Below, in pieces: positions 13,879 through 57,350 of a stretch of 64,000 bases of DNA. The translations under genes were made by a program, and so were the position numbers. Source of the stretch: a virus. Numbering within the stretch: position 1 is the first letter of the stretch; every line of letters starts with the position of its first letter. The notes beneath the pieces were generated by a model, which did not search any database, was not told the origin of the DNA, and worked only from the letters and a program-made list of their open reading frames with translations. Where the stretch lies: IMG/VR virus record IMGVR_UViG_3300048851_000105, positions 1 to 64,000 of that record, one strand, 5' to 3'.

Positions 13879-14043
13879 ATGGCTCCCGCAGTGATCGACC
13901 AGTACAAGCCCCTCGTCGATCACTTCGTCGACGCCATCAAGTCCGACTTCCGGGTGATCGAGGCCATCGCCTCTCGTGCGACCTCGATCCAGGCAGCCCG
14001 CGGCCCCAAGCAACTGGCAGGGAGCGCCCTCACCGGCGAATAA
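13879..14043 (+). CDS. Hypothetical protein (54 aa)
   Basis: MAPAVIDQYKPLVDHF...; phage-like codon usage; below ORF-track cutoff. Confidence 0.5.
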   Translation: MAPAVIDQYKPLVDHFVDAIKSDFRVIEAIASRATSIQAARGPKQLAGSALTGE

Positions 14044-14048
14044 CAGGC
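14017..14048 (+). promoter_or_regulatory. Phage-sigma promoter motif copy 1 (GCAG-N16-CGAATAACAGGC)
   Basis: Matches 10-copy bipartite consensus; precedes SNF2 helicase. Confidence 0.6.
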
Positions 14049-14062
14049 AGGAGGGAATCTTC

Positions 14063-15697
14063 TTGCCACTAGCATTCGACGTCCGAGGCATGCCCGATGA
14101 GCGCAGGGAATCGCTCGCGTGGATGGCTCACGAGTCCAAAGACCGCCAACTGCCACGCCTGAGCGTTTGGAACTACGATCCCTGCCCCGTGCACGAGCGC
14201 GGCTGGTACGACGAACTCGGAGCCCAGCGTTTCAGCCCCAAGCCGGACTGCCGCAACTGCGCCATCATCCCTCGTGCTCACCAGCGCGTGGGAGCCCTGT
14301 GGCTCTACCTCCGCAAGAAGGGCCTCCTCGCGGACACCACGGGTGTCGGCAAGACCACACAGGCGGGCCTGCTCATCGCCATGATGATCGAGTCCGGCGA
14401 ACTCGACTTCGTCCGAGACCTCTCCCGAGGTGCCAAGGGCCGCGTGCTCGTCGTGCCCACCGCTCCCGCGCTCGCACAGTGGGAGGCGGAACTCCACCGC
14501 ATGATGCCGACCCTCAACATCGTGGTGGCGTCCGGCGGGATGTCCGCGGCTCAGCGCCGCCAGATGTACCTCACGCCGTGGCAGGTCCTGATCATGGGCC
14601 CGGAGATGTATCGCAACGATCACGAGAGGCTGAGGAATCTTCCCCTCGCTGCGCTCATCGTCGACGACGTGGACGCGCTCCGCAATCCGGACACCCAGAC
14701 CAGCGTCACGCTCGACAACCTCGGACGCCGGATCGATCGCTACATCATCATGAACGCCACCCCGCTCCAGAAGCGGCTGATGGAACTCCACGCCACCCTC
14801 GATGCGATCGGGGGCGAGCGCGCGCTCGGCGGCCGCGACACCTTCGAGCGGATGTACATCGATCGCCGGAACGGGCAACTCTCCTACCGCAGGCTGGACG
14901 AGGTCAAGCGGAACATGGCGCCTCTCGTGCTCCGGCGCACGGCCAGCGATCTCGACGACGTCGACATGCCGCGCATCCAGCCGCTCAACCACATGCTCGA
15001 TCTCTATCCGAGGCAGCGCGACAAGTACACCGAGTTGCAGCGAGGCGTCATCCGGCTCCTGAAGGAGAACAGGGAGCAGGTCAAGCGCGTCACGGCCGTC
15101 TCGAAACTCCACTACGGAGCCGCCATCTGCGCCGGGCTCGGCTCGCTGGGCGCCGACGACATCGAAGACGGCCCGGGCATGAGTGTGAAGCACGACTGGC
15201 TCATGGACCGGGTGAATGGCGAGTTCGAGGAGGACAAGATCGTCGTCTTCGCTCGGCTGAAGAACACGATTCGAGACCTCCAGTTCCGGCTGCGGGATCA
15301 GCGTGTCGGCTTCACCACCATCTGGGGAGAGGATTCCTCCAAGGAGGGACGACTGGCCGCCCAGAACCGCTTCCGGGACGATCCGAACTGCCGCGTGCTC
15401 ATCGGCACGAGCGCGATCGTGCGAAGCCTCAACCTCCAGGTCTCGCGGCGGCTCGTCAACATCGACATGATCATGAACCAGGCGCAGATGCACCAACTCG
15501 CAGGGCGCATTGCGCGCATCGGCTCGATGCACCGGACGGTCTACGTGCACAACCTGCTCACTGTCGACACCCAGGAGGAGCGCTACCTGCCCATGCTCGA
15601 ACGCGAGAGCGCGCTGGCCGGGCACATGTGGGGCGAGGAGTCCGAGTTGTTCGAGCAACTCAGTCCCATGGCGATGCTCCAACTGATCACAGGCTAG
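14063..15697 (+). CDS. SNF2-family (SF2) helicase
   Basis: LLADTTGVGKT, IVDDVD, IMNATP, FRDDPNCRVLIG, QLAGRIARIG motifs; TTG start chosen from GGAGG SD. Confidence 0.9.
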   Translation: MPLAFDVRGMPDERRESLAWMAHESKDRQLPRLSVWNYDPCPVHERGWYDELGAQRFSPKPDCRNCAIIPRAHQRVGALWLYLRKKGLLADTTGVGKTTQAGLLIAMMIESGELDFVRDLSRGAKGRVLVVPTAPALAQWEAELHRMMPTLNIVVASGGMSAAQRRQMYLTPWQVLIMGPEMYRNDHERLRNLPLAALIVDDVDALRNPDTQTSVTLDNLGRRIDRYIIMNATPLQKRLMELHATLDAIGGERALGGRDTFERMYIDRRNGQLSYRRLDEVKRNMAPLVLRRTASDLDDVDMPRIQPLNHMLDLYPRQRDKYTELQRGVIRLLKENREQVKRVTAVSKLHYGAAICAGLGSLGADDIEDGPGMSVKHDWLMDRVNGEFEEDKIVVFARLKNTIRDLQFRLRDQRVGFTTIWGEDSSKEGRLAAQNRFRDDPNCRVLIGTSAIVRSLNLQVSRRLVNIDMIMNQAQMHQLAGRIARIGSMHRTVYVHNLLTVDTQEERYLPMLERESALAGHMWGEESELFEQLSPMAMLQLITG

Positions 15698-15707
15698 GAC
15701 GCATATC

Positions 15708-16400
15708 ATGAATCCCATGCCGACTCCCCTGACACCGCGACAGCGGGAACTCGTCGCCTCGAACAAGGGGCTGGCTGAGAAAATCTCACACGACTACCTC
15801 CAGCGTGCTCCTGGACTGGAGATCGACGAGGTGGTCGCTGTCGCCTACCAGGGCCTCATCGACGCCGCGCTCCGATTCGATCCGTCCCGTGGCGTCCCCT
15901 TCGGCGGATTCGCTCGGCAGATCATCCACTTCGCCATCCAGATGTGGCAGCGAGACGAGGACTACCTCCAGCGCAACATCCGCACGGACTACAAGAAGAT
16001 GCTGGAGAGCGGCTACACCGAGCGCGGCGGCATTAGTCCCTCCCTCGTCGAGCGGACCGGACTCACGATGAAGCGCATGGTGACCGTGGTCCGGGCCGTC
16101 GCCGCGAAGCCCACGAGCAGCGAGCATCTCGTTGAGGCAGAGGCGGTGCTCGCCCACCCCGACGTCGATGTCGAATCTTCTGTCGTGGTCTCGGCCATCC
16201 AGGGCTCCGTGGCCACCGTCTACCAGAGCCTCCCCGGCGTACAGCAGATCATCGTCGCCATGGTCTACTTCCAGGGCCTCGAACTCCGCCAGGTGGCCGA
16301 GAATCTCGGCACCAGCGTCTCCTTCGTCCGACAGTCCCACAGCGAGGCGGTCTCTCTCCTTCACGAGGAGATGGTTCGACAGGCACGCATGCCGGATTGA
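15708..16400 (+). CDS. RNA polymerase sigma factor, FliA/WhiG/SigF-like
   Basis: Region 2 (VAYQGLIDAALRFDPSRGVPFGGFA) and region 4 (IVAMVYFQGLELRQVAENLGTSVSFVRQSH). Confidence 0.9.
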   Translation: MNPMPTPLTPRQRELVASNKGLAEKISHDYLQRAPGLEIDEVVAVAYQGLIDAALRFDPSRGVPFGGFARQIIHFAIQMWQRDEDYLQRNIRTDYKKMLESGYTERGGISPSLVERTGLTMKRMVTVVRAVAAKPTSSEHLVEAEAVLAHPDVDVESSVVVSAIQGSVATVYQSLPGVQQIIVAMVYFQGLELRQVAENLGTSVSFVRQSHSEAVSLLHEEMVRQARMPD

Positions 16401-16417
16401 GGCGTACCACAGGCATG
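16383..16417 (+). promoter_or_regulatory. Phage-sigma leaderless promoter copy 2 (GCAC-N16-CGTACCACAGGC-ATG)
   Basis: Exact consensus; ATG is the start of the next gene. Confidence 0.75.
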
Positions 16418-16660
16418 GCACTCAATCCTCCCCAGTACGACCTGACCTTGGAGCAGGCGCTCGCCCGGCTCGAAGCCGAGGTCGAGAAGAACCAGCAGCA
16501 GACCGACACCCCGCTCCTCCAGGGCATGACCCCGGACCAGGCGTACAACGTGGGGTACGAGACCTGCCTGCGAGACCTCCAGTCGCTGACCGGGCCCGAC
16601 CCCATGGAGTTCGGCGTCGTGACCTTCGAGTTCGAGAAGAAGGACGAGACCAATGGCTGA
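16415..16660 (+). CDS. Hypothetical protein
   Basis: Start set by leaderless motif; normal codon usage. Confidence 0.65.
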   Translation: MALNPPQYDLTLEQALARLEAEVEKNQQQTDTPLLQGMTPDQAYNVGYETCLRDLQSLTGPDPMEFGVVTFEFEKKDETNG

Positions 16661-19133: not shown

Positions 19134-19144
19134 AAGGAATCCTC

Positions 19145-20160: not shown

Positions 20161-20177
20161 CGTTACTGTGGTAACAT
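20161..20177 (+). promoter_or_regulatory. Extended -10 (TGgTAACAT) overlapped by 16-bp operator CGTTAC-TGTG-GTAACA
   Basis: Intergenic after thyX; matches operator family. Confidence 0.65.
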
Positions 20178-23970: not shown

Positions 23971-24178
23971 TCACGGTGCCGTGCGACACGCCGCTCAGGA
24001 GAGGTTGCGTGTCGCGGACGGAGTGATACTCTCCTCAGATCGGGTGTACGTCACCCTCGTAACGGAGCCACACAACCACGCTCCAGAGAGGAACCGCACT
24101 GCATCCGAATCTTCTGCTCTGGGTCTGGTAGCATCGTCTCACCTTCGTTGTGTGAGGTGGCTGTCTTGACCCACAGCA

Positions 24179-24208
24179 GGGGCTCCCCGTCTTCGGATGG
24201 GGAGCCCC
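24179..24208 (+). terminator. 13-bp hairpin with cUUCGg tetraloop in leader of second sigma gene
   Basis: GGGGCTCCCCGTC-TTCG-GATGGGGAGCCCC; no long U tract, so role uncertain. Confidence 0.55.
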
Positions 24209-24238
24209 GACTTACATCCCCTCCAGGAAGGTCAAGAC

Positions 24239-24943
24239 ATGCGCACCACCACTCCCCCCGTTCAACTGAACGTCGAGGCTCCCGGCACTCTGAAGGCCGA
24301 GATCGACGTCCGGCAGTCGAGGATCACCGACCACTCCGTCCCGGAGTCGTTCACGGAACTCTACGATCGCTACTACGGCTACGTGGTCCGGCTCGTGAAG
24401 CGTCGCGGCATCGCCCACAGTGATGTGGAAGACGTGGCCCAGACGATCTTCGCCCACTTCTATCGTCGCGGATCGCTCGAATACTTCGACGCCGAGCGTG
24501 TGGATGTGCACGACGGCAGGGAGTACACCGCCAAGTTCACGACCTTCCTCTCTGGATTCGTCGTCACGTACCTCCAGCACCACCTGACAATGCAGGAACG
24601 CAATGAGAATCGCATGGTTCGCAGCGGCGGCCTCGACAGCCTGATGGAAGACCCCACGGAGGAGAACTCCTGGGTCAACACCCGCGGACCTCGCTACGAC
24701 GACGACCACAGTCGGGTCGAGTACGTCGAGTTCGTCGAGAACCTCCACGTCCGGCTCTCCAGCGTCAAGCCGCGCTCAGCACGCACCGTCTGCGACCTGC
24801 CCGTGTTCTTCGAGGCCATCCGGAAGCAGATCGAGGTCAACGGCAAGTACGACGCCGACGAACTCGCCGCCCAGTTCGGAGTCGCGAGGCGCACGATCCA
24901 TAACTGGCTGGGCCTGCTCCGGGCCGAGTTGAACGGTCTCTGA
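24239..24943 (+). CDS. ECF-like sigma factor
   Basis: FTELYDRYYGYVVRLV...DVEDVAQTIF...KFTTFL region 2; C-terminal HTH ADELAAQFGVARRTIHNWL. Confidence 0.75.
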   Translation: MRTTTPPVQLNVEAPGTLKAEIDVRQSRITDHSVPESFTELYDRYYGYVVRLVKRRGIAHSDVEDVAQTIFAHFYRRGSLEYFDAERVDVHDGREYTAKFTTFLSGFVVTYLQHHLTMQERNENRMVRSGGLDSLMEDPTEENSWVNTRGPRYDDDHSRVEYVEFVENLHVRLSSVKPRSARTVCDLPVFFEAIRKQIEVNGKYDADELAAQFGVARRTIHNWLGLLRAELNGL

Positions 24944-26939: not shown

Positions 26940-27923
26940 GTGACGACCTGGAGTCAGTGGTTCGTCGCGCAGCAGAAGGAGCCGAAGGCCAAGCAGGTCA
27001 CCTTCCTCTGCGGTTCCGAGCCGATCCTCATCGACGAGGTCGTGACCCACATCACGACTCTGCTCGGCGTCAGCCCGTGGAACTACGTCGCGCTCGTGGC
27101 CGGAGAAGATTCGGACCGTGTGCTCTGGGCCGAACTGGAGCGCCATCCGATCGATCAGTCCTTCCGGCTCGTCGTCGTGCGTGACGCCGAGAAGATCAAG
27201 GACAGGGACCGGATCGAGGCCTGGGCCAAGAACAAGGCGGCCAATCCGAAGACCTACCTCGTGCTCATCTCCAACGAGCAGCGCATCCCCACCGTCCCGG
27301 CCGAGAAGCGCGGCGAGAAGCCCTCTCCCGAGCCCCACGTGGCCGCTCTCGCGCGTCGGGGGCAGGTGATCGAGTGTCGGCCCTTCACGCAGGCCACAGC
27401 CCGTCACGCGATCACCTGGGTGCGTTCCAAGGTGCACATGCCGGAGAACGTCGCAGCCCACCTGCTCAACCGAGCGAACGGAGACCTGCGCCTGGTGCGG
27501 GACACGTGCGTGAAGTTGGCCGTGCTCGATGACTCCGTCTCGATCAGCGTCATCGACGCCATGCTCAGCCAGCGCCCGCGGATCGACTTCCGGGAGGCTC
27601 TGCTTCAGCGCCGCAAGAAGGACGCCCTGTTCTCCCTCACCCGACTGGCGCCGGAGGAGTACGGCCGCGTGCTCGGACAGATCGATGCCGATCTCGACCT
27701 GGCCGGGCTCGTCTACGACCTGACCAACCAGCACGCCACGCAGGGCGAGATCGTGCGCGCCGCGGGCAAGATGGCGTTCCTCGTGCCGCACATGCAGCCG
27801 ATTGCGAAGCACTACGACCCGAAGCGCCGGACGGCCCTCCGCAGGCTCCTCGCAGTAGCGGACGAAGCGGTCCGCGGCGGAGAGAGAATCGGAGTCATGG
27901 AGAGTTTGGTGGCACAGTGGTGA
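26940..27923 (+). CDS. holA: Clamp-loader delta (HolA)-like protein
   Basis: TFLCGSEPILID, RLVVVRDAEKI, LLNRANGDLRLVRDTCVKLA. Confidence 0.75.
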   Translation: MTTWSQWFVAQQKEPKAKQVTFLCGSEPILIDEVVTHITTLLGVSPWNYVALVAGEDSDRVLWAELERHPIDQSFRLVVVRDAEKIKDRDRIEAWAKNKAANPKTYLVLISNEQRIPTVPAEKRGEKPSPEPHVAALARRGQVIECRPFTQATARHAITWVRSKVHMPENVAAHLLNRANGDLRLVRDTCVKLAVLDDSVSISVIDAMLSQRPRIDFREALLQRRKKDALFSLTRLAPEEYGRVLGQIDADLDLAGLVYDLTNQHATQGEIVRAAGKMAFLVPHMQPIAKHYDPKRRTALRRLLAVADEAVRGGERIGVMESLVAQW

Positions 27924-27946
27924 TCGAGCCGCGAATCACAGGCATG
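27912..27946 (+). promoter_or_regulatory. Phage-sigma leaderless promoter copy 3 (GCAC-N16-CGAATCACAGGC-ATG)
   Basis: Consensus match upstream of the polymerase operon. Confidence 0.7.
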
Positions 27947-28342
27947 AGCGTGGTCGGAGACATCCTGGCAGAGCCGCAAGCCGTCATCCTGTACGAGAGG
28001 GAGGACGAAGAAGCCGTTCGTGAAGTCATGCGTGACGTCACGACCGAGATGGCCGTCCAGATGGCTGTGTCCGATCCGCTCTTGTCGAGCCTCGTCGTCA
28101 TCGACAACGAGTCTCAAATCGAGAAATGGCCGGGGTGGCTGGACATCATCGTTCCGAGTGAGATCGATTCGTTGACCTTGCACTCTTCCCAGACGGTGGT
28201 GAGCCTGAGTCCTGCGTTCCTGCGGCGGCGACACTCGCTTGATCTCAGCCGCCTCGGCCGTTTCTACGCCATGACTCCAGACGCCGCGCTCGCCGAGCGC
28301 ATCAGCGTCGACACGATCATCCACCTGGAGAACGCAGCGTGA
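27944..28342 (+). CDS. Hypothetical protein
   Basis: Start set by motif; GTGA overlap with polymerase. Confidence 0.55.
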   Translation: MSVVGDILAEPQAVILYEREDEEAVREVMRDVTTEMAVQMAVSDPLLSSLVVIDNESQIEKWPGWLDIIVPSEIDSLTLHSSQTVVSLSPAFLRRRHSLDLSRLGRFYAMTPDAALAERISVDTIIHLENAA

Positions 28343-31300
28343 GCACCCGCAACTACGGCGTCGTCCGAACCGCACGAGAGTTCCTCACCCACGCACGCAG
28401 GCTGATGCAGACCCCGGAGATTCCGGTCGGGTTCGACATCGAGGCCGGTTACCGAGGCGAGGACAAGGACGGCGTCTCGCTCCTCCCCCACCACCCCGAC
28501 TGGCTCCTGGTCTCCTTCCAGTTCACCAACGGCCGCGACTGGGCCCGCATGGTGCCGATCGCTTTCGACGACACCTCGAAGAACGTGGACGACGTCGTCG
28601 CGACCGCCCGAATCTTGTGGCGGCTGGTCAACACCTGCAAGATCGTCCCCCACAACGCGAACTACGAACTCACCGGCGTCAGCCGCTGGTTCATGGAGAC
28701 GCTCGCGGATGACCCGATCGTGGGCGAGGAAGTCCGCGCCGTCGACGGATTCTTCCCGATCTTCACGGACTCGTACATCGAGGCCAAGATGCTCAACCAG
28801 TACGACCCGCTGCGCGTCGGCGCCGGTCTGAAGGGCCTGTCGAAGCACGTGCTCGGGCAGGAGATGACGGAGTTCCGCTCGCTCTTCCCCGACGAGGACA
28901 CGGACATGGGCCCGGCGACGAAGAAGTCGCGCCTGAAGTACATCCGCTTCAACACCCGCAACCCCGATAGCCCCCGGATCATCGACTACTCGTGCGAGGA
29001 CGCCACGGCGGCCTGGGAACTCAGCGACAAGCACCTCCCGGCGCTGAAGGACTCCGAGATGTGGATGATGTACCAGATCGAGATGCGCCTGCTCCCGATC
29101 CTCGTCGACATGGAGTACGAGGCGCTCGTGCTCGACTGGCCCGAGATTCATCGCCGCGCGGAGGAGATCAAGCGGTTCGGCGAACTCTACAACGAGGAGA
29201 TTCAGCAGGAGTTCGCCAAGCGCACCGGCCGCGCCACGCCTGTGCTCCTGTCGAGCCCGAAGCAGTTGGCCGACGTCCTGTTCAAGGACCCCGCCGAGGG
29301 CGGCCTCGGTCTGCCGGTCAAGAAGCGCTCGGACAAGACGCAGCAGCCGAGCACGGGCAACGACGCGCTCCGCGTCATCGCGCAGAAGGACGCGATCATC
29401 CGAGACATCCTCACCTGGCGACGCGTGAGCAAGTTGTACGGCTCCTACCTCAACAAGTACGACACCCAGTTGAACTACGCGGGCAACGGCCGTGCATACC
29501 CGAACCACAACCAGATCGGCGCAGGCACCGGCCGCATGTCGGTCGACGGCGTCCCCTACCAGCAGTGGCCGAAGCCGTACCACTTCGAGTTGAAGGACGG
29601 CACGTCGTTCGACCTCAACTTCCGTGACCTGCTCGTCTCGCCCGAGGGCTTCCGCATCGTCGGCTTCGACTACAGCCAGATCGAGTTGCGCATTCTGGCA
29701 GGCCAGGCGGGCGAGGACACCATGATCCAGGCCTTCAAGGACGGGGTGGACATTCACCGCGCCACGGCCGCGACCATGCTCCGTCGTCCGCTGGAGGACA
29801 TCGACAAGAAGCAGCGTGGCGTCGGCAAGACCTCGAACTTCGCCGTGGTCTACCAGTCCGGCGCTGAGAACATCGCCGACATGCTCACCGCCCAGGGGTC
29901 GCCCACGACCACCGAAGAGGCCGAGCAGATGCTGAAGGACTACTTCGCAGCGTTCCCCAAGTTGCGCGCCTACATGGACAAGTTGGTCACGGACGGCTCC
30001 AGCCAGCACTACATCATGACGCCGTTCGGCCGGAAGTTCACCATCTGGGAGTACAAGGACTCCCGGCAGTGGATTCGCGCCAAGGGCGATCGTCTGTGCG
30101 TCAACGCCCCCATCCAGGGTGGCGCGGCCGACTACATGAAGATCGGGCTCGTGCGGGCCTACAACGCCATCAAGAAGGCTGAGAAGGAGGGGCGCATCCC
30201 CCCGAAGAGCATCCGCCTGGTCATGAGCGTGCACGACGCGCTGGAGTTCTACGTGCACGAGTCCGTGGACACCCAGACGGTCATCGACCTGCTCGACCCC
30301 ATGGTGGCGTTCGATCACCCTGCGCTCGGAGGCGTGCCGATCCGCGCGGACTGGCACGAGGGACACCGCTGGGGACACGTCGTCGAGGTCCAGCGCGACG
30401 AGAGCGGCAAGATCACGGGTTACGTGAACGAGGACGACGATCAGGTCTTCGAGAACGTCGAGGACGCCTACGCCCGTGGGCTCGTGCTCGACGAGGAGAA
30501 GATGGCCAAGTACGCCCAGAAGATCGCCGACCGGCTCGCCCAGCAGCAGGGAGAGCAGCAGGCCGCGGCCGTCCAGGACAGCGACGACTTCGCAGACCTG
30601 CCTCACCCGTTCATCGCCGACTCGACCGAACTCTTCTGCGCCATCTGCGGGCAGGATGAGGATTCCACCAACCTGCACGATCTCGCGCTCGCCGAGGACA
30701 CCCAGAGCCTCCCCGGGCCTAGTCAGCCGGAGCCTCACCCGGGGCCCCCGTCCGACCCCGTGCCTGGTCAGGAGGAGAAGCCCAACACCGAGGAGGACCT
30801 CTTCGCGGAGATCGACGCCCTCATCGGGGTAGCGGATCAGGTCGTCCACGACCCCGAGCCTCCCATGGCGCTCGCGGAAGAAGATTCGGCGTTCACGGCA
30901 CTGGCCAAGGAGCAGGGCGAACTCCCCGGTCCGACCGTGCTCGATGCCATCGACGACGCTGTCGTTGAGGCGAAGGCGGCCGAGGCGCGCGAGCGCTTCC
31001 TGTCCGGCTCCACTACGGGCGGTCTCGACCACCAGCAGTTGAAGAGCGAGTTCTACCTGCGCTACCACAAGGAGGCCGAGCCGTTCGAGAGCCCGAGCGC
31101 GTGGCTGAAGCGTATCGGCGTCTCAGAGGACGAGGCTCGCGACGACGCGGACGCTCCCGAGTGGGCGCACACGCCCATGGAGCCGAAGACCGCACAGGAG
31201 GTGGATCAGGTCTGGGTGCTCACCGTCACCGAGATGCCCGATGAGGACCTCTACGAGGTCATGATGTCGTGGCTGAAGAAGATGGACGGCTACGTGCTTT

Positions 31301-31440
31301 CGCGAGTTATCCTCAGCACGCCCGAGGGGGACGTCGAACTGGGTGAGTTCGCGGTCGGCGCGGACAACCAGCACAAGGTCTCTCGTCTCGTGCACGGTCA
31401 GTTCGACATGGCGACTCGACCGAAGCGGGTGAACGCATGA
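28339..31440 (+). CDS. polA: Family A DNA polymerase with 3-5 exonuclease and about 350-aa C-terminal extension
   Basis: GFDIEA exo I; TGRMS, DYSQIELRILA, KTSNFAVVY, NAPIQGGAADYMK, VHDALEF. Confidence 0.93.
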   Translation: MSTRNYGVVRTAREFLTHARRLMQTPEIPVGFDIEAGYRGEDKDGVSLLPHHPDWLLVSFQFTNGRDWARMVPIAFDDTSKNVDDVVATARILWRLVNTCKIVPHNANYELTGVSRWFMETLADDPIVGEEVRAVDGFFPIFTDSYIEAKMLNQYDPLRVGAGLKGLSKHVLGQEMTEFRSLFPDEDTDMGPATKKSRLKYIRFNTRNPDSPRIIDYSCEDATAAWELSDKHLPALKDSEMWMMYQIEMRLLPILVDMEYEALVLDWPEIHRRAEEIKRFGELYNEEIQQEFAKRTGRATPVLLSSPKQLADVLFKDPAEGGLGLPVKKRSDKTQQPSTGNDALRVIAQKDAIIRDILTWRRVSKLYGSYLNKYDTQLNYAGNGRAYPNHNQIGAGTGRMSVDGVPYQQWPKPYHFELKDGTSFDLNFRDLLVSPEGFRIVGFDYSQIELRILAGQAGEDTMIQAFKDGVDIHRATAATMLRRPLEDIDKKQRGVGKTSNFAVVYQSGAENIADMLTAQGSPTTTEEAEQMLKDYFAAFPKLRAYMDKLVTDGSSQHYIMTPFGRKFTIWEYKDSRQWIRAKGDRLCVNAPIQGGAADYMKIGLVRAYNAIKKAEKEGRIPPKSIRLVMSVHDALEFYVHESVDTQTVIDLLDPMVAFDHPALGGVPIRADWHEGHRWGHVVEVQRDESGKITGYVNEDDDQVFENVEDAYARGLVLDEEKMAKYAQKIADRLAQQQGEQQAAAVQDSDDFADLPHPFIADSTELFCAICGQDEDSTNLHDLALAEDTQSLPGPSQPEPHPGPPSDPVPGQEEKPNTEEDLFAEIDALIGVADQVVHDPEPPMALAEEDSAFTALAKEQGELPGPTVLDAIDDAVVEAKAAEARERFLSGSTTGGLDHQQLKSEFYLRYHKEAEPFESPSAWLKRIGVSEDEARDDADAPEWAHTPMEPKTAQEVDQVWVLTVTEMPDEDLYEVMMSWLKKMDGYVLSRVILSTPEGDVELGEFAVGADNQHKVSRLVHGQFDMATRPKRVNA

Positions 31441-33154: not shown

Positions 33155-33753
33155 TGCGCGCGCTCGTCGGGGACCTGGCCGCCACCTTCTCTGCGTTCCA
33201 GATCAGGGATGGCAGCCAGGTCCTCGTCGAGTGGGACACCCGGGGGGAGACTCCCTTCGGCACGGCCAAGAAGATTCGGCGGATGGCCGACGAGTACGCG
33301 GTCGACCTGATCTTGCTGGAGACCGTCCCGCAGCGGGTCAAGTTCCATATCGACCGCATCTTTCGGCTCCAGGGCATCATCTTCGCCTACCTGCACCCGT
33401 ACTTCGAGGGCGACCGAATCTTCTTGGTGTTCCCGCAGACGTGGCAGAAGCATTACCCAGGCGTAGGGAGCATTCCCAAGGGCGTGGACGTCCCGAAGGC
33501 CCATCGAGACGCGTGGAGGGCTGAGGAGGCCCGGAAGCACGCACTGGCTCGCGGTTACGCGCCGCCCGACCTCGTCGAGCAGTACATCGCGAGCCTCCCA
33601 GAGGGGGCGAGGGTGCTGAAGAAGCACACTGACCCTCTCGCCAAGAGCATGACGGACTACGTCGATGCCTTCCTCATCGGGGACTGGCTCTACTCAATCG
33701 GCACCGTTGACGAACTGAGGCGTACCACAGGCGTACAGCCTCCCATGATCTAG
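33154..33753 (+). CDS. ruvC: RuvC-like Holliday junction resolvase
   Basis: LVGDLA, ILLETV, FPQTWQK, DYVDAFLIG. Confidence 0.65.
   Translation: MRALVGDLAATFSAFQIRDGSQVLVEWDTRGETPFGTAKKIRRMADEYAVDLILLETVPQRVKFHIDRIFRLQGIIFAYLHPYFEGDRIFLVFPQTWQKHYPGVGSIPKGVDVPKAHRDAWRAEEARKHALARGYAPPDLVEQYIASLPEGARVLKKHTDPLAKSMTDYVDAFLIGDWLYSIGTVDELRRTTGVQPPMI
33701..33732 (+). promoter_or_regulatory. Phage-sigma promoter copy 4 (GCAC-N16-CGTACCACAGGC), leadered
   Basis: Exact consensus inside the end of ruvC; upstream of the recA operon. Confidence 0.7.
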
Positions 33754-33767: not shown

Positions 33768-34073
33768 ATGTCCGACGAGAAGAAGGTCCGCATCGTTCCG
33801 CCCGAGCAGGTCGTGCCCGACTACTTCCAGCCGTACTCGCAGGTGGAGCACGGCTACCGCAACCCCAACGGCGGTGAAATCTGGGGACCTGCCTACGTCG
33901 GCAACACGGTTGTCTCCCTCGCGGACGCGGCCGGACGCGGCCGGTTCCTGGATCATCGGCGCCGCGAGGTGGAGCGTCTCGGCGTGCTCTGGGACGCCAA
34001 GAAGATGGCTCCGGTGTTCATCCAGCGGACGCGAACGGTGACGTTCGACGAGCCGACCGAGGTGGAGGAGTGA
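33768..34073 (+). CDS. Hypothetical protein
   Basis: AGAAGATTCCTCATG start context. Confidence 0.6.
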   Translation: MSDEKKVRIVPPEQVVPDYFQPYSQVEHGYRNPNGGEIWGPAYVGNTVVSLADAAGRGRFLDHRRREVERLGVLWDAKKMAPVFIQRTRTVTFDEPTEVEE

Positions 34074-35332
34074 GCCCGGCAGCCAAGGCAGTGGCGAAGG
34101 CCAAGCCGGACGAACTCGACGCGCTCTTCGACAAGGCCGAGGCGAAGTACGGCTCCCCGGTCGGCACGCTCGACGCGATCGGCTCGGATGCCCAGTTCAT
34201 CTCGACGGGCAACATGTCCTTCGACCTCGCGCTCGGCGGCGGCTTCCCCATGGGGCGCCTCGTGGAACTGGCCGGGCCTCCCTCGTGTGGCAAGACCACG
34301 CTCGCGAGCATGGCCGTCGCGATCCTCCAGCAGATCATCCTCTCCGGGGGCGACCCCTCGCGAGGCATCAAGCCAGACGACGTCATCCTCTACCTCGACT
34401 TCGAGAACGCCGTCGACAAGCAGTACATGCGCAAACTCGGCATCGACACGAAGGACCGCAGCCTGCGCTTCACCCAGCCTGACTTCCTCGAAGACGGCGC
34501 CGCGCTCACGCTCGCAGCGATCCGCACCGGCCGCGTTCGCATGGTGGTGGTCGACTCCGTCGCGGCCATGAACCCCCGCGCGGTCGCGGAGGCAGAGGTC
34601 GGCAAGCCGCTCCCCGCGATCATGGCGAAGATTCTGACGCCGTGGGCGACCACGCTCCAGAACGAGGCCAAGGAGAACAACTGCCTGGTCATCTTCATCA
34701 ACCACCAGAAGGAGGTCATGGAGATGGGCGGCGGCAGCAAGCCGGGCGTGAAGGTCTACAACACCCCCGGCGGCTCGGCGCTGAAGTATTTCCAGTCGCA
34801 GCGGCTCTCCTTCCGTCAGGGCACGAAGAACTACACCGACTACAAGGACCCCGTGCTGAAGGAGACCGAGCGCCGGGTGACCAGCATCGACATCCGCATG
34901 ACGGTCGAGAAGAACAAGGTGGCCCCGCCCTACCGCAAGGCGCTCGCGCGCGTGCGAGAGAACCGTGGCTTCGACAACTTCTGGTCGGCCATGTCGATCC
35001 TGCTCGCGCACCGTCTCGTCGTCGGCGAGGCCGGAGGCATGTTCTACTTCCACCGCCTCGCGGAGCACGGGCTCGTCGAGGACTGGATGACGATGAGCGC
35101 GGCGAAGGCCAAGACCGAGCCACGCCCCTACATCCGCGGCCTCGACAACGTCTACGCCATGGCGGACACCCACCCCGAGTGGCGCGAGCGCGTCATCATG
35201 TTCACCGAGGGCATCCTCCCCGACATCATCAAGACGGACGAGGACATGGACGTGGCGGCGCCGATCGAAGAGGCCGACGAGACCACGACCGCAGCGCTCG
35301 CCGAGTTCGACGCCATCGAGGACGGCTCCTGA
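34070..35332 (+). CDS. recA: RecA/UvsX recombinase
   Basis: ISTGNMSFDLALGGGFPMGRLVELAGPPSCGKTT, VVDSVAA, IFINH, TPGGSALKY, EKNKVAPP. Confidence 0.95.
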   Translation: MSPAAKAVAKAKPDELDALFDKAEAKYGSPVGTLDAIGSDAQFISTGNMSFDLALGGGFPMGRLVELAGPPSCGKTTLASMAVAILQQIILSGGDPSRGIKPDDVILYLDFENAVDKQYMRKLGIDTKDRSLRFTQPDFLEDGAALTLAAIRTGRVRMVVVDSVAAMNPRAVAEAEVGKPLPAIMAKILTPWATTLQNEAKENNCLVIFINHQKEVMEMGGGSKPGVKVYNTPGGSALKYFQSQRLSFRQGTKNYTDYKDPVLKETERRVTSIDIRMTVEKNKVAPPYRKALARVRENRGFDNFWSAMSILLAHRLVVGEAGGMFYFHRLAEHGLVEDWMTMSAAKAKTEPRPYIRGLDNVYAMADTHPEWRERVIMFTEGILPDIIKTDEDMDVAAPIEEADETTTAALAEFDAIEDGS

Positions 35333-37896: not shown

Positions 37897-38159
37897 AGAG
37901 TCCCATCTCGTCGAAGACGACGAAGATTCTCCTCGACGGGCTCCGTCTCCAGGAGTGCTCCGTGCGGCCCACCACCAACGGCTGGCACATCCTCTTCCCG
38001 AACGGCGCGGGCACGTCGCTGCACCGCACCCTGTCCGACTGGCGGGCACTGAAGAACTTCCGCTCGATCGTGCGACAGCAGGGTCTCGTGTGGCCGCTCG
38101 ACAAAGAAGAGTTCAGCCAACTTGCACAGAAGTCCCGCAGGGGCGTACAACAGGCATGA
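37893..38159 (+). CDS. Orphan HicA-like (dsRBD-fold) protein
   Basis: VRPTTNGWHILFPNG...HRTLSDWRALKNFRSIVRQQG; no HicB neighbour. Confidence 0.55.
   Translation: MKSPISSKTTKILLDGLRLQECSVRPTTNGWHILFPNGAGTSLHRTLSDWRALKNFRSIVRQQGLVWPLDKEEFSQLAQKSRRGVQQA
38124..38158 (+). promoter_or_regulatory. Phage-sigma promoter copy 5 (GCAC-N16-CGTACAACAGGC-ATG)
   Basis: Consensus match; the ATG opens only 19 codons and a structured RNA follows. Confidence 0.7.
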
Positions 38160-38378
38160 CGTCGCAGTGCTTCCCCCCTGTCACACGACGTCAGGAGGCC
38201 CCTCACTCCCCCTGAGGGGCCTCCACCCACAGACTCGGGACGTCACCCTGGAGGGGGACGTCCCGAGGGCAGAGAGCGGAGACCTGGGGGCTTTCGCAAT
38301 GACCTGCCGGGGGCCGGAGAGGTTCGCTGTAATCGCATCGGGTGCGAGCAGCGACAGGGACTCTACGGCCCCCAACTC
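38156..38378 (+). ncRNA. Putative 6C-like small RNA, about 220 nt
   Basis: Consecutive stems of 8, 12 and 11 bp, first two with C-rich loops, then a GGGGCCG/CGGCCCC-closed domain. Confidence 0.6.
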
Positions 38379-38379
38379 C

Positions 38380-38393
38380 CATTTCTCGAAATG
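38380..38393. promoter_or_regulatory. Palindrome CATTTC-TC-GAAATG
   Basis: 2 nt upstream of -35 TGGACA. Confidence 0.6.
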
Positions 38394-38395
38394 AC

Positions 38396-38459
38396 TGGAC
38401 ACGACACCGTGACAGGTGTAACGTAGTTCATGTCAGAGAGTCCGCTTCTGGAAGGAGCA
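38396..38459 (+). promoter_or_regulatory. SigA-type promoter TGGACA-N17-TAACGT with operator and conserved CCGCTTCTGGAAGGAGCA leader
   Basis: Operator 38408-38423; leader 38442-38459. Confidence 0.7.
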
Positions 38460-39995: not shown

Positions 39996-40000
39996 TGCTG

Positions 40001-40035
40001 GCATCGTGGGTAAATGGGGGCGTATCACAGGCATG
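40001..40035 (+). promoter_or_regulatory. Phage-sigma leaderless promoter copy 6 (GCAT-N16-CGTATCACAGGC-ATG)
   Basis: Consensus match. Confidence 0.75.
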
Positions 40036-40413: not shown

Positions 40414-40638
40414 ATGCCCCGCCATCCTGAGTCCGGTATCGTCTTCACCCTGGCCGTCGAAACGGTGCGAGATGCCGTCGCCAACAGCGAGACCAAGAAG
40501 CAGGCCTACGTCGACAGCCTGGCCGCTCGTGACGATGTCATCCGTGACGCAGCGAAGTACCTGCCCTACCCGAGGCTGATGGAGATCACCGGCCTCGGAC
40601 GCGAGACACTCAGTCGCATCGTCAACAGGCGCAAGTGA
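40414..40638 (+). CDS. HTH DNA-binding protein
   Basis: LPYPRLMEITGLGRETLSRIV. Confidence 0.7.
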   Translation: MPRHPESGIVFTLAVETVRDAVANSETKKQAYVDSLAARDDVIRDAAKYLPYPRLMEITGLGRETLSRIVNRRK

Positions 40639-40663
40639 CGATCCGACGCGTATCACAGGCATG
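40629..40663 (+). promoter_or_regulatory. Phage-sigma leaderless promoter copy 7 (GCGC-N16-CGTATCACAGGC-ATG)
   Basis: One mismatch in upstream box; ATG starts the SbcC-like gene. Confidence 0.7.
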
Positions 40664-43087: not shown

Positions 43088-43281
43088 TGGCCAACGCACC
43101 TACCTGGACGATCGCAGGTACGCTCACCATCGAGTCCGGCAGCACCTACGAGGACGGCACGTCTATTCAGGCCACGCTCGTGCTTCGAGCAGAGAGCGCT
43201 GTGGCGGCCATCGTGGCCTTCAAGGACTCACTGACGTGCGGCGCGGACTACGCCATCACGTCCGTCGTACAGGCACGCTGA
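43087..43281 (+). CDS. Hypothetical protein
   Basis: TGATG overlap. Confidence 0.5.
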   Translation: MANAPTWTIAGTLTIESGSTYEDGTSIQATLVLRAESAVAAIVAFKDSLTCGADYAITSVVQAR

Positions 43282-43307
43282 GCGCGGAGAGGCGTACCAC
43301 AGGCATG
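43273..43307 (+). promoter_or_regulatory. Phage-sigma leaderless promoter copy 8 (GCAC-N16-CGTACCACAGGC-ATG)
   Basis: Exact consensus. Confidence 0.75.
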
Positions 43308-43981: not shown

Positions 43982-44214
43982 TGAGCGACCTCGACGACCT
44001 CATCATCGACGCGTTCGAGGAGCGCACGCCCTACCCCGAGCCCGTGTTCCGTACGGTCAGTGAGGCATGGGGCATTGATCGACACGGCTACATCAACGCG
44101 TACAGCGATCAGAGCACCCCGATCTTCTTCGACATCGTCCAGAGCCATAACGATGCCGTGATGTCCCGACTGGTCGAGGAGTTCGGCGTCGAGAACGAGC
44201 CGAGGACGTGGTGA
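43981..44214 (+). CDS. Hypothetical protein
   Basis: Abutting starts and stops. Confidence 0.55.
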   Translation: MSDLDDLIIDAFEERTPYPEPVFRTVSEAWGIDRHGYINAYSDQSTPIFFDIVQSHNDAVMSRLVEEFGVENEPRTW

Positions 44215-45266
44215 CCTACACCGACCAGAGCATCATGCTCATCGGCGACCTGCACTTCAGGGACACGCCCCCGCGCAACGCCACGGACACGTACGTCGAC
44301 GACCTCTTCGACCTCCTCGACTGGACGATCGACTATGCCGTCGACAACAAGATTCGGACGATCGTGTGGGCCGGGGATATCTTCGACCACAAGCAGCCGA
44401 GCCGCACTAGCCATGCGCTCGTGCTCCGTCTCGTGTCACGTGTGAAGGAGATCATCGCCGCGGGTATCGAACTCATCATCGTCGTCGGCAACCACGACAT
44501 CTCGAATGACGTGGTCGAGAGCGCGTTCACCAAGCAGCCGCTCGCTCTCCTCTACGCCGCGGGCGCCAAGGCTCTCGATGGCTGGCACGACACGCTCCCC
44601 CTCTACGGCATCCCGTGGCAGCAGCGCTGGCACGCGCCCGGCGTCCTCGACACCGTGTTCGAGCGTTACCGCACAGCGTTGGGCCGAGACGAGACCGACA
44701 CGCCTGGCGTATCGAGCATGGAGGAGTCACCCGAGCAGACACTCGTGGTCACGCACGCGAGCATCTTCCCCGATGACCTGCACCGAGACATCATGTACGA
44801 GGCCTTCAGCGCCTCTGAGGTGGCCGAGGCCATGTCCGGAGCAGGGAACCTCTACCACGGGCACATCCACGACGACCACGGCGTCTACGAGGCCGGTGGA
44901 GTGCAGTTCTGCAATCCCGGCGCCCTGAGCCGAGGCAGTGCGAGCGAGAGCAACATCACGCGCACCATCCACCTCGCCGTCTGGACACCACCGCGGACGT
45001 ACGACGCTGACGGCTGGACGGATGGCGGCTTCGACATCGTCGACATCCCGATCGCCAAGAGCGCCGAGGAGACGTTCCGACTGGAGAGCGTGCGCGAGCA
45101 CCAGAGCAACCAGAAGACGCTGGAGCGGTTCCTCGCCGGGCTGGGCTCCACCGTGTTGGACATCACCGACCGACACGCCGTCGTCCGTCACATCCGTGAG
45201 AGGCAGGACATCAGCCCTCGTGTCCGTGAGAGAGCCATCGAGATGCTGGAGGCGCAGGATGCGTAA
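44208..45266 (+). CDS. sbcD: SbcD/Mre11/gp47-like metallophosphoesterase nuclease
   Basis: IGDLH, AGDIFD, VGNHD, GHIH, NPGALSR. Confidence 0.85.
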   Translation: MVTYTDQSIMLIGDLHFRDTPPRNATDTYVDDLFDLLDWTIDYAVDNKIRTIVWAGDIFDHKQPSRTSHALVLRLVSRVKEIIAAGIELIIVVGNHDISNDVVESAFTKQPLALLYAAGAKALDGWHDTLPLYGIPWQQRWHAPGVLDTVFERYRTALGRDETDTPGVSSMEESPEQTLVVTHASIFPDDLHRDIMYEAFSASEVAEAMSGAGNLYHGHIHDDHGVYEAGGVQFCNPGALSRGSASESNITRTIHLAVWTPPRTYDADGWTDGGFDIVDIPIAKSAEETFRLESVREHQSNQKTLERFLAGLGSTVLDITDRHAVVRHIRERQDISPRVRERAIEMLEAQDA

Positions 45267-46166: not shown

Positions 46167-46440
46167 CGAGGCGCCGCTCATCATCGCCCCAGGCGACGTC
46201 AAGATGACGCGTGAGGCTCTCGCGATGGCGCAGCATCTCCTGAACCACGACGGGCAGCACACGCGCGCAGATCGGCTACAGCACCTCATCGACGAGTGCG
46301 ATCGTCACCGGCCGCTGGGCAGCGATGGCAAGCACGGGAACCTCCACACCTCCACGTGTGGGTGCGAGGACGTCGAGCCTCAGGTGAAGACCACTCCGTG
46401 CCGTTGCGGACACGACCACGATGGGCCTCATCTCTTCTGA
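46159..46440 (+). CDS. Hypothetical protein
   Basis: HRPLGSDGKHGNLHTSTCGC motif. Confidence 0.6.
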   Translation: MSDEAPLIIAPGDVKMTREALAMAQHLLNHDGQHTRADRLQHLIDECDRHRPLGSDGKHGNLHTSTCGCEDVEPQVKTTPCRCGHDHDGPHLF

Positions 46441-46441
46441 G

Positions 46442-46476
46442 GCACAGCCGACCGTTACAGGCGTACCACAGGCATG
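46442..46476 (+). promoter_or_regulatory. Phage-sigma leaderless promoter copy 9 (GCAC-N16-CGTACCACAGGC-ATG)
   Basis: Exact consensus. Confidence 0.75.
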
Positions 46477-51105: not shown

Positions 51106-51118
51106 GGGAGGGGGAGCA

Positions 51119-52361: not shown

Positions 52362-52381
52362 TAAGGAAGAGGAGGCCCCAA

Positions 52382-53859: not shown

Positions 53860-53863
53860 CCCC

Positions 53864-55404: not shown

Positions 55405-55407
55405 CCC

Positions 55408-55821
55408 GTGACGAACACCGAGAAGATTCGGGCCGCCTACATCCGGTCGTTCGCTAGTCACGCGGTTCTGGAGACCGCAGCAGCGAAGCAGTTCGACGAG
55501 TGGCTTCAGCGCGAGCGTGCGAGGGCATGGGAGGAGGGCAAGGACGAGGCTCTGGGCGCCGGAGATCGGGATGCTCTGATCAATCCCTACGACCCTCCCA
55601 GGGAAGCCTCTCCTGTGGACCTCGACCTGCCTGAGGGTGGGCTCGCTGTCGGCACAGTCGTCTCGTACTACCGTGATCCCTCCATCCGCGGGAAGGTGAG
55701 TCTCGCGCAGGTTTCCGGTGACCACTGGGCCTATGCAGTGGCCTGGGACTACGCCCCCGAGCGCTCCACAGGCTGGTACACCCGCTCCATGCTTCGACCC
55801 GAGACCGAACAGAAGGACTGA
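55408..55821 (+). CDS. Paralogue-family protein (FDEWL..ERARAWEEG...NPY) with SH3-like C-terminus
   Basis: Motif shared with neighbours. Confidence 0.65.
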   Translation: MTNTEKIRAAYIRSFASHAVLETAAAKQFDEWLQRERARAWEEGKDEALGAGDRDALINPYDPPREASPVDLDLPEGGLAVGTVVSYYRDPSIRGKVSLAQVSGDHWAYAVAWDYAPERSTGWYTRSMLRPETEQKD

Positions 55822-55823
55822 CC

Positions 55824-56132
55824 ATGGCACGCATCGAGCCCGACTACACCCCCACCACTGAGGAGGTGAAGGACGCCTATGGACTGGGCGGCGACGGCGC
55901 TGACTTCAAGGCCGAATACTGGGCCCGCAGAGAGGCGTTCGATCGCTGGCTGGCTGCGCACGACGCCGAGAAGGACGCGGAGATCGCGCGCCTGTCGCAG
56001 CGGCCGACCGTCGAAGAGGTGGCGCGGTCGGTGGGTTGGCAACATCCCCGAGTCCCCCATGACGAACTGAGGTCGATCGTGTCTGCCGTGCTCGCCCTGT
56101 TCCCCACCCCCAAGGAGACCCCCCGTGGCTGA
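55824..56132 (+). CDS. Paralogue-family protein (PTTEEV...FDRWLAAHDAE)
   Basis: DNA-level similarity to the next gene. Confidence 0.7.
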   Translation: MARIEPDYTPTTEEVKDAYGLGGDGADFKAEYWARREAFDRWLAAHDAEKDAEIARLSQRPTVEEVARSVGWQHPRVPHDELRSIVSAVLALFPTPKETPRG

Positions 56133-56655
56133 GCACACCCCCACCACCGAAGAGGTCCGGCAGCGGTACGCCTACGACGAGTGGACAGACCCACAGGAGA
56201 GCGACTACGCAGCGTTCGACCGCTGGCTGGCCGCCCACGACGCCGAGGTACTGCGCGACGGAGGCTTGGTCCGTGTCGAGACCGCCGAGAAGTACCGCCA
56301 GCGGTGGGAGGATGCCCAGGCTGAGGTGCGTCGCCTGTCCCAGCGGCCCGCCATCGAAGAAGTCGTGCGAAGGCTTTGGACCGAGAACGCGAGCCTGACC
56401 AACATGCAGGCACGGAACCTCGTCGAGGACGTGCTCGCCCTGTTCCCCGCACCCAGGGAGACCGCCGATGAGCGCACTCGTTGCCTGTCCGTTCATCGGG
56501 GTGTGCAGTGTCAGGGGTACTGGGAGCACCACCTGGACGAGACCACCCACTTCCATCAGGGTGACGAGGAGTACGGCGGCCCCAGCCACAACCACCACTG
56601 GGAGGGCCCGTCCTGGCGCTCTCTCCGCACCCGCTTGGAGGAGACCCATGCCTGA
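56125..56655 (+). CDS. Paralogue-family protein (PTTEEV...FDRWLAAHDAE) with C-terminal Cys/His motif
   Basis: Tandem duplicate of the 55824 gene plus added module. Confidence 0.7.
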   Translation: MAEHTPTTEEVRQRYAYDEWTDPQESDYAAFDRWLAAHDAEVLRDGGLVRVETAEKYRQRWEDAQAEVRRLSQRPAIEEVVRRLWTENASLTNMQARNLVEDVLALFPAPRETADERTRCLSVHRGVQCQGYWEHHLDETTHFHQGDEEYGGPSHNHHWEGPSWRSLRTRLEETHA

Positions 56656-57064
56656 GCACGTCCCTACGAGGGAAGAGATCGAGACCGCGTACGCCGGGGG
56701 GTGGAGCGAGGACTCGATCCCTGGCAAGAACGCCCGTGAGGAGTTCGCCGCCTGGCTGGCCGATCACGACGCTCAGGTCTTGGACATCGCTCGCCGCCCC
56801 CGCATGATCGCCGCCGAGAGAGAGGCCAACGCCGCCGATGAGAAGACCGTGATCCGGGACGTCAACGGCGACGTCTTCGAGAAGGTCTCAGGCCGAGGCT
56901 GGGAGATGACAGGAGAGTCCGGACGCTGGGGGCCGACCTGGATCAAGTACCCCGCCACTGTGCTCTGGGCGCCGCTCTACGGCCGCATGGAGGTGGCACC
57001 CGTCGATCTCCAGCAGCACCCCACACAACCCCGTCCTGAGGGCTACCAGGGAAGCCCCGCGTGA
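56648..57064 (+). CDS. Paralogue-family protein (PTREEI...FAAWLADHDAQ)
   Basis: Same N-terminal module, different C-terminus. Confidence 0.7.
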   Translation: MPEHVPTREEIETAYAGGWSEDSIPGKNAREEFAAWLADHDAQVLDIARRPRMIAAEREANAADEKTVIRDVNGDVFEKVSGRGWEMTGESGRWGPTWIKYPATVLWAPLYGRMEVAPVDLQQHPTQPRPEGYQGSPA

Positions 57065-57315
57065 CCGAGCCCCTGAGCCCCCTCGACAGGGAGGTGAGCG
57101 ATGGCACGCGCTACCTCCTCTGGCCGGACGCCGAGATCGCCTGGCGCTGTCATTGGTGCAGGCTGGTCTACTCCGACCCGAAGGCGCACTTCCGCTCCTA
57201 TCCCCAGTGCCGATCATGACGTGTCCATCGTGCGGGGGTTCTGTGGCCCCTGAGAGCCTCTACAACGGCTCAGGGACACCTGTGGCCACCGTCGACAGAT
57301 GCGTGCGCTGTGGGC

Positions 57316-57350
57316 GCATGGAAGCCCGCTGAGGGCGTATCACAGGCATG
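57316..57350 (+). promoter_or_regulatory. Phage-sigma leaderless promoter copy 10 (GCAT-N16-CGTATCACAGGC-ATG)
   Basis: Consensus match. Confidence 0.75.

Follow-up and report, generated by a model that had tools for sequence, protein, structure and literature searches.

A strand-specific motif fused to start codons in an actinobacterial phage is probably a phage-sigma promoter for leaderless transcripts

Copies of the motif and the genes they precede

We analysed a repeated two-box motif, here called the M-class motif, in the first 64,000 nucleotides (the window) of the virus record IMGVR_UViG_3300048851_000105 from IMG/VR. The complete genome comprises 125,778 bp with 64.8% GC, of which the window is the first half, and coordinates refer to the window unless they are called genome coordinates. 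The motif is probably a promoter read by a phage-encoded sigma factor that starts transcription on the start codon of most of the genes it precedes. Genes were called in this analysis from the GC content of third codon positions (GC3). The open reading frames (ORFs) and other features at the ten copies in the window, all on the plus strand, are listed below.

14012-14048, plus strand: copy 1 (leadered), -35 box AACTGGCAG, core GGCGAATAACAGGC
16378-16417, plus strand: copy 2, fused to ATG 16415 of an 81-aa ORF that is followed by MazG-like, DnaB and ThyX genes
27907-27946, plus strand: copy 3, fused to ATG 27944 of a 132-aa ORF that is followed by a family A DNA polymerase (28339-31440)
33696-33732, plus strand: copy 4 (leadered), wholly within an upstream ORF ending at 33753
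38119-38158, plus strand: copy 5, wholly within an upstream ORF (ATGA overlap), followed by a 19-codon ORF and a structured RNA
39996-40035, plus strand: copy 6, fused to ATG 40033 of a 103-aa ORF, with a host-type promoter about 110 nt upstream
40624-40663, plus strand: copy 7, fused to ATG 40661 of a 349-aa SMC/SbcC-like ATPase
43268-43307, plus strand: copy 8, fused to ATG 43305 of a 109-aa ORF in an operon that includes an Mre11-like phosphoesterase (44208-45266)
46437-46476, plus strand: copy 9, fused to ATG 46474 of an 80-aa ORF
57311-57350, plus strand: copy 10, fused to ATG 57348 of a 65-aa ORF, fully intergenic

Two copies in the window carry leaders. For copy 1 transcription is predicted to start (+1) at A14049, where the AGGAGG Shine-Dalgarno sequence ahead of the TTG start of the SNF2 helicase (14063) begins; the helicase has a Pfam SNF2 match and its N-terminus from this TTG aligns with gp46 of the cultured Microbacterium phage Magritte. 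The -10 box of this copy contains the TAA stop of a small ORF (13879-14043). For copy 4 the predicted +1 is G33733, with a leader of 35 nt to ATG 33768, and RecA (34070-35332) follows. The -35 box and spacer of copy 2 lie within the 3' end of the first of two phage sigma genes described below (sigma-1), and its 14-nt core occupies the entire intergenic gap. The genes assigned in the original prediction (SNF2 helicase, DnaB, ThyX, family A polymerase, RecA and SMC/SbcC-like ATPase) were all recovered behind the motif, as were the Mre11-like phosphoesterase, sigma-1 in the helicase operon, a deoxynucleoside monophosphate kinase and many small ORFs. Because this regulon is made up of replication and recombination genes, the motif would belong to a middle class of promoters.

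Shape and statistics of the motif

A search with CGWAYMACAGGC returned ten matches in the 64-kb window, all on the plus strand and at the positions originally predicted, as compared to 0.06 expected, and none of 100 shuffles reached ten. Relaxing the search by two mismatches added matches only at the chance level. The alignment also bore out the predicted layout, in which GCAY lies exactly 16 nt before CGWA in every copy (GCAG at 14017, GCGC at 40629) and CGWA is directly preceded by GG in eight copies and by CG in two. The predicted fusion of ACAGGC to ATG in eight window copies was recovered as eight occurrences of ACAGGCATG, as compared to 0.34 expected.

Two of the predicted dimensions were too small. 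A box is indeed present at GCAY; the full box is wACwGGCAC at -37 to -29, giving the full motif wACwGGCAC-N14-GGCGTAYCACAGGC, with the core GGCGTAYCACAGGC at -14 to -1 and ATG at +1 to +3 of the column profile. The family of ten holds for the window and understates the genome, where a weight matrix built from the copies found exactly 18 sites with scores of 24-38, the runner-up scoring 7.8 and none lying between. Sixteen sites are on the plus strand and two on the minus strand, each co-oriented with its downstream gene, and all 18 lie within 14-93 kb, the non-structural part of the genome. The 16-nt spacer is exact in all 18 copies and the -10 is CGTA, with CGAA in four. The upstream box was also seen when sites were picked by the core alone, with G-32 in 16/17 and C-31 in 17/17 copies, and the base after ATG (+4) is A in 11/17. 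The word ACAGGCA occurs twice in the column profile, at -36 to -30 (the -35 consensus) and at -6 to +1. Together these data show that the motif family is sharply defined and strand-specific.

The ATG directly abuts the motif in 14 of the 18 copies. Thirteen of these ATGs begin ORFs that are 58-349 aa long and have a GC3 of 0.79-0.93, and the fourteenth (copy 5, 38144) opens only 19 codons followed by about 245 nt of strongly structured RNA. The RNA predicted from this copy (38156-38400) has C-rich loops and a minimum free energy of -129.5 kcal/mol (fold z = -5.65), and it had no Rfam match. ARAGORN detected no tRNA or tmRNA in the window and Rfam no known RNA family.

The remaining four copies (14037, 33721, genome 75154 and, on the minus strand, genome 90862) are leadered and keep GGCGWAYMACAGGC, including ACAGGC, with no adjoining ATG. 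Shine-Dalgarno sequences (AGGAGG, AAGGAGG) lie in the leaders of the leadered copies, downstream of the motif; the leader at 75154 is 20 nt long with AAGGAGG and that at 90862 is 32 nt. As predicted, several copies lie inside upstream genes, five of them wholly (33721, 38144, genome 71866, 75154 and 85090). Three of these five overlap the upstream stop as ATGA, and the upstream proteins end in ...GVQQA, ...GESQA and ...SVSQA. At these overlaps (38157-38159, genome 71879-71881 and 85103-85105) the core dictates the last five residues of the upstream proteins (G/S-V/E-Q/S-Q-A).

Conservation in related phages

The motif was compared across whole genomes of Magritte (OR553905) and four near-complete IMG/VR genomes, G001 to G004; closer Logan relatives (P0002-P0010, sigma-1 50-69% identical) were left out of this comparison. 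Magritte is the nearest cultured phage (polymerase 48% and sigma 31% identical) and is syntenic. On its gene strand GGCGTAYMAC-N4-ATG occurs about 18 times, mostly at independently annotated starts, and orthologous sites precede its helicase (GTG), polymerase and RecA (leadered) operons. The site at 57286, upstream of gp68 and the polymerase, is the ortholog of copy 3, and the leadered site at 62612, ahead of gp74 and RecA, is the ortholog of copy 4. The Magritte -35 box, GTTGATC, and the four bases before its ATG, YCAC, are both unlike those of the phage studied here. GGCGTAYMA was likewise kept in G004, with ATG or GTG 8 nt past CGTA, and in G003 and G002, with ATG 9 nt past CGTA. Thus four of the five relatives keep GGCGTAYMA and a start codon 8 or 9 nt after CGTA, and their -35 box and last 4-6 nt before the start differ from those here; the block before the ATG is ACAGGC here, YCAC in Magritte, GGKC-like in G004 and GTAGGT in G003, and the -35 box is common to Magritte and G004. 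The fifth relative, G001 (99% complete), had no strand-biased GGCGTA motif.

A conserved -10-like box, a -35 box specific to each lineage and a fixed distance to a start codon that leaves no room for a Shine-Dalgarno sequence together point to a promoter at which transcription would begin on the start codon. The leadered copies, the geometry in the relatives and the gene content are all consistent with the original proposal of a middle promoter with +1 at the ATG adenine, and on this evidence we regard a phage-sigma promoter that yields leaderless transcripts as a strong probability. A cofactor may read ACAGGC, as the original prediction suggested; as far as the sequences go, the block is invariant in this lineage only, so the promoter class as a whole does not depend on it. 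The motif would also identify the correct start codon for at least 13 genes here and lead to several corrections in Magritte.

In Magritte, at 80712, 106125, 115898, 127234 and 133181 of OR553905, the annotation does not use the fused ATG; it places the start 15-31 nt away or calls no gene, and it may need revision at these sites. A near-identity DNA search of a phage collection gave no match, and scans of IMG/VR with a sigma-1 protein pattern and the exact motif gave one unrelated contig of 44% GC only.

Two phage sigma factors

Exactly two ORFs with sigma-70 region 2 were found in the genome.

15708-16400, plus strand: sigma-1 (gp15708), FliA/WhiG-like (group 3), with Pfam regions 2 and 4
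24239-24943, plus strand: sigma-2 (gp24239), divergent, extracytoplasmic function (ECF) type (group 4)

Sigma-1 matched FliA structures over its full length (6pmi, E = 3.6e-19, as well as 9wsf and 1rp3; E from 1e-19 to 1e-14), and the FliA DNA-contact residues R84, R91, R94 and R98 are invariant in its family. Its gene lies downstream of copy 1 and of an upstream host-type leaderless promoter, and judging by this arrangement it would be transcribed from both.

The sequence support for sigma-2 was weak, with Pfam and NCBIfam matches to regions 2 to 4 that were weak and in no case above the Pfam threshold, and a profile match to RpoE (2q1z). All top Foldseek matches of its AlphaFold2 model (mean predicted local distance difference test score 71) were ECF sigmas, the best being sigma E, the Mycobacterium tuberculosis sigma chain 9m9e, sigma L, AlgU, sigma H and SigW, with region 2 matching 4lup at a template modelling score of 0.70. 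The modelled fold makes gp24239 a phage-encoded candidate for the group 4 sigma, with domains 2 and 4 only, that an ECF promoter calls for. At first gp24239 had been considered a gp55-like sigma that has region 2 alone and reads a one-box late motif; this idea was given up when a C-terminal domain 4 was found. Sigma-2 homologues and the M-class motif occur together in all five genomes that have the motif, this phage included, and G001 has neither; G001 does have sigma-1, with CCGATAG 15 times on the plus and 4 times on the minus strand, and its helicase and sigma-1 operon has a host-type promoter only.

Upstream of sigma-2 (24100-24240) there is an extended -10-like sequence, TGGTAGCAT, at about 24125-24133 and a GC-rich hairpin at 24180-24208 just before the Shine-Dalgarno sequence. 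The relatives retain the hairpin and the word AAGTTGACCGCTT at the same place, suggesting that sigma-2 synthesis may be regulated through its 5' untranslated region.

A late motif fits the FliA-like sigma

A second motif, TCTGCCAATGGTAG, is confined to the virion-gene region and to the plus strand.

8720-8733 and 8745-8758, plus strand: late motif
Genome 97462, 101130, 112860, 113400 and 120157, plus strand: late motif

At genome 112860 a gap of 7 nt lies between the octamer GCCAATGG and an ATG downstream of it. Counterparts were found in Magritte (CCGATATCCCTG), G004 (CCGATACTCC), G003 (GGCCGATCTTC) and G001 and G002 (CCGATAGTA), all five relatives having GCCGAT where this phage has GCCAAT. 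Octamer and ATG are separated by 7 nt here and at several sites of Magritte and G004, and by 8 nt in G003 and G001. The -10 element of sigma-28 is (-15)GCCGATAA(-8) (PMC12784957). In FliA, D81 contacts G-12; the corresponding residue of sigma-1 is D in all relatives that have a CCGAT late motif and M here with CCAAT. The late motif fits sigma-1 because GCCGAT/GCCAAT matches the sigma-28 element, the FliA contact residues are kept and the D81 equivalent covaries with the motif, and TCTGCCAATGGTAG is therefore probably a late promoter class read by the FliA-like sigma.

Proposed transcription programme

Host core RNA polymerase with a phage sigma, more probably gp24239, would transcribe the M-class promoters, with sigma domain 4 on the -35 box wACwGGCAC and domain 2 on the -10 box GGCGTAYC across the 16-nt gap from GCAC to CGTA. 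Initiation is predicted 8 nt past CGTA, at the A of an abutting ATG, so that 14 of the 18 transcripts would be leaderless, 13 of them protein-coding and one a structured RNA. Host sigma A would serve the early genes, with low-level transcription of both sigma genes among them; the ECF-like sigma would then read the M-class motif and turn on the replication and recombination genes and the operon of the helicase and FliA-like sigma; and the FliA-like sigma (15708) would finally read the late promoters TCTGCCAATGGTAG of the virion genes. ACAGGC may serve as a lineage-specific discriminator that fixes the start site, a role proposed because a leaderless message needs AUG exactly at its 5' end. It is also conceivable, though we think it improbable, that ACAGGCA is read twice, 30 bp apart on the same helix face, and that a phage factor or a second sigma contact clamps both to set the exact start nucleotide for a 5'-terminal AUG. 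Such a start-site-fixing device, if the double reading is true, has not been described for sigma-dependent promoters.

The whole statement, that the motif is a middle promoter with a leaderless start and that gp24239 is its reader, is favoured with modest confidence. Sigma-2 is preferred as reader because of its ECF fold, the ECF-style architecture of the motif and their co-occurrence. The original prediction had named the sigma at 15708 first and that at 24239 second; the two candidates stand, and their order was probably the wrong way round, as 15708 fits the late motif and 24239 has the ECF fold, the ECF-style motif and the phyletic pattern.

Alternative readings

The closest alternative keeps the same leaderless promoter and exchanges the sigmas, with the FliA-like 15708 reading the M-class motif and activating itself through copy 1 (14037) while the ECF-like protein reads the late motif. 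Sigma-1 lies directly downstream of this copy, and the upstream host-type promoter could prime a positive loop. Several observations weigh against gp24239 and in part suit this exchange. No M-class copy precedes sigma-2, and autoregulation, which is usual for ECF sigmas, was thus not seen. The -35 box has AC and not the ECF AAC, and GGCGTAYC loosely resembles the sigma-28 octamer GCCGATAA, having G-CG in common with it and lying about as far from +1. In this phage and Magritte the recognition helices of sigma-2 are near-identical (RRTIHNWL and RTTIHNWL), yet the -35 boxes differ (ACWGGCAC and GTTGATC), whereas the region 4.2 helix of sigma-1 diverges more between the two phages, as the boxes do. 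In addition, the absence of both sigma-2 and the motif rests on one genome, G001, and the change from D to M with G to A is a single event.

However, other observations argue against 15708 as reader. The position corresponding to the flipped -11 base is T and not the A of sigma-28, the late motif is a far better sigma-28 match with which the D81 equivalent covaries, G001 has sigma-1 in the absence of the motif, and Magritte and G004 share their -35 box although their sigma-1 regions 4.2 differ widely. We therefore consider gp15708 an alternative reader of the motif but more likely a late sigma, and the exchange of the two sigmas to be unlikely. Neither of two further approaches decided the matter: host-type -10 boxes precede both sigma genes, making the promoter ahead of each gene non-discriminating, and covariation of the recognition helix with the -35 box was ambiguous as an arbiter.

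It is less probable still that a host sigma recognises the promoter, either an alternative sigma of the ECF type or sigma A that a phage factor on the repeated ACAGGCA has redirected. CGTA with a 16-nt spacer is common among cellular ECF promoters, and ACAGGCA at its two positions could be read by a separate DNA-binding protein. Against this, the -35 box varies among the phage lineages while Magritte probably has the same or a close host genus, the motif is found together with the sigma-2 gene of the phage, and no TANNNT hexamer stands at a usable sigma A distance, a generic sigma-70 scan missing the motif.

That the motif is not a promoter but a translation-start signal or an RNA processing site at gene starts would agree with its contact with start codons and the A that follows many of the ATGs. 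We consider this very unlikely, since the four leadered copies retain the motif with no adjoining start codon and have Shine-Dalgarno sequences of their own. The fused copies leave no room for a Shine-Dalgarno sequence and none of the motif is complementary as one, a second box is held 16 nt upstream, and what is conserved between lineages is GGCGTAYMA and not the bases touching the ATG. A promoter of a phage-encoded single-subunit RNA polymerase, which the 14-17 contiguous invariant T7-type-like bases and a 1968-aa head-module ORF with no family match might suggest, is hardly credible, as the bipartite layout with its fixed spacer and the two sigma genes suffice, the two largest ORFs had no polymerase matches and PF00940 was unmatched in the genome, a weak negative because control genomes were silent too.

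Other promoters and repeated elements

Host-type promoters of the form TTGACA-like-N17-TAACGT are overlapped by a palindrome, and several then carry a conserved leader, GCTTCTGGAAGGAGCACCCCGTG. The 16-bp palindrome, YGTKAC-N4-GWMACR, covers the spacer and -10 box at 20161, 37475, 38408, 50298, 51347, 51416, 52346, 53816, 57568 and 63052, and a copy at genome 75145 overlaps the -10 box of a putative M-class promoter; an analogous element, GTTAGCGCGTGACGTGCA, is present in Magritte and G004. Five copies of the 23-nt leader, GCTTCTGGAAGGAGCACCCCGTG/ATG, lie downstream of host-type promoters (38444, 53844, 61352 and genome 65281 and 70413); this leader is highly conserved, contains a Shine-Dalgarno sequence and recalls the start-associated sequences.

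Ahead of copy 1, TAGCAT at 13866 lies 7 nt before the leaderless ATG 13879 of a 54-aa ORF (GC3 0.82), the ORF whose stop lies in the -10 box of that copy. The same layout was found in Magritte (TAATAT, 7 nt and ATG of gp45, with the stop in GGCGTATAA) and in G001 (TATGCT, 7 nt and ATG), and no similarity was detectable between the 54-aa protein and its Magritte and G001 counterparts.

Generic scans for sigma-70 promoters and terminators performed at the chance level and delimited no operons. About 40 copies of an AT-rich 9-mer, GAATCTTCT or its complement, are dispersed over the genome in both orientations (for example at 14055-14063 and 24106-14), and the related words AAGATTCGGAGC, AAGATTCTGAG and AAATCTTCTT are over-represented in the relatives. 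The 1968-aa ORF of the head-gene module (genome 106687-112593, outside the window) had no Pfam match, and its only PHROG match, a weak one, was to a family whose function is unknown; gp17 of Magritte (1991 aa, hypothetical) lies at the same position.

Comparison with known systems

The programme proposed here would give a compact and testable temporal model for an actinobacterial phage, with three promoter classes (host-type, ECF-style and sigma-28-style) and two phage sigmas of different groups, in which each of the three classes includes promoters placed to start on the start codon. If true, it would supply orthogonal sigma/promoter pairs for high-GC Gram-positive hosts and a natural system for studying how a promoter can confine initiation to a single nucleotide so that the message is translated without a leader. 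Literature searches turned up no account of this motif or of how this phage group is transcribed.

The two boxes of ECF promoters lie about 16-17 nt apart, and in the sigma W promoters of Bacillus subtilis TGAAAC and CGTA are spaced by N16. ECF promoters have AAC at -35 and CGT at -10 and adhere closely to their consensus, those of sigma W having TGAAAC and a CGTA -10 (PMC5758882). The M-class motif is alike in its two boxes, a -35 ending in AC, a 16-nt spacer, CGTA and near-invariant copies, and the phage encodes a sigma with an ECF fold. It differs in that the -35 is GGCAC and not AAC, in the start codons fused to the predicted +1, and in a sigma that is phage-encoded, highly diverged and has an insertion. 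Neither an autoregulatory copy nor an anti-sigma was seen for sigma-2.

Leaderless sigma A promoters of Actinomycetota have TANNNT about 7 nt before the ATG. As in these, the start codon of the M-class genes lies at the predicted start with no Shine-Dalgarno sequence, and the phage itself has promoters of this kind (TAGCAT, 7 nt and ATG, 13866-13881); the M-class motif has GGCGTAYC instead of TANNNT and requires a private -35 box.

Promoters of sigma-28 (FliA/WhiG) have TAAA-N15/16-GCCGATAA (PMC12784957, PMC12871210). The M-class motif shares with them an extended 8-nt -10 box with a CG core 6-7 nt from +1, and a FliA-like sigma is present in the phage. However, the motif has CGT and not CGA, with T at the place of A-11 in GGCGTAYC, and ACWGGCAC in place of TAAA, and it is the late motif, with GCCAATGG/GCCGAT, that carries the sigma-28-like -10.

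Actinophages have start-linked repeats to which no function has been assigned, namely the start-associated and extended start-associated sequences of Clusters K and EF and an 18-bp motif in the sigma-encoding Cluster EC Microbacterium phages (PMC7302621). Start-associated sequences occupy the position of the ribosome-binding site, 3-8 nt ahead of the start, and are complementary to the 3' end of the 16S rRNA; the EC motif is found 21-30 nt upstream of starts (PMC7302621). These repeats also occur as many co-oriented private copies near gene starts, some of them in genomes that encode sigmas. The M-class motif differs in touching the ATG, in its promoter geometry and in leadered copies that have a separate Shine-Dalgarno sequence downstream.

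Phage sigma cascades include SPO1 gp28 followed by gp33/34, T4 gp55, phiEco32 gp36 and phage 7-11 (PMC13401047, PMC4331800). In these as in the programme suggested by the sequence here, phage sigmas redirect the host core to private, near-invariant promoters in temporal order, and the late sigma gene would lie in a middle operon. The hosts and the sigma families (ECF-like and FliA-like) are different here, and most of the promoters appear built for leaderless mRNAs. The phage sigma strategy itself is known; what would be new, if the full statement holds, as we somewhat favour, is the pairing of an ECF-like with a FliA-like phage sigma and promoters built for leaderless messages.

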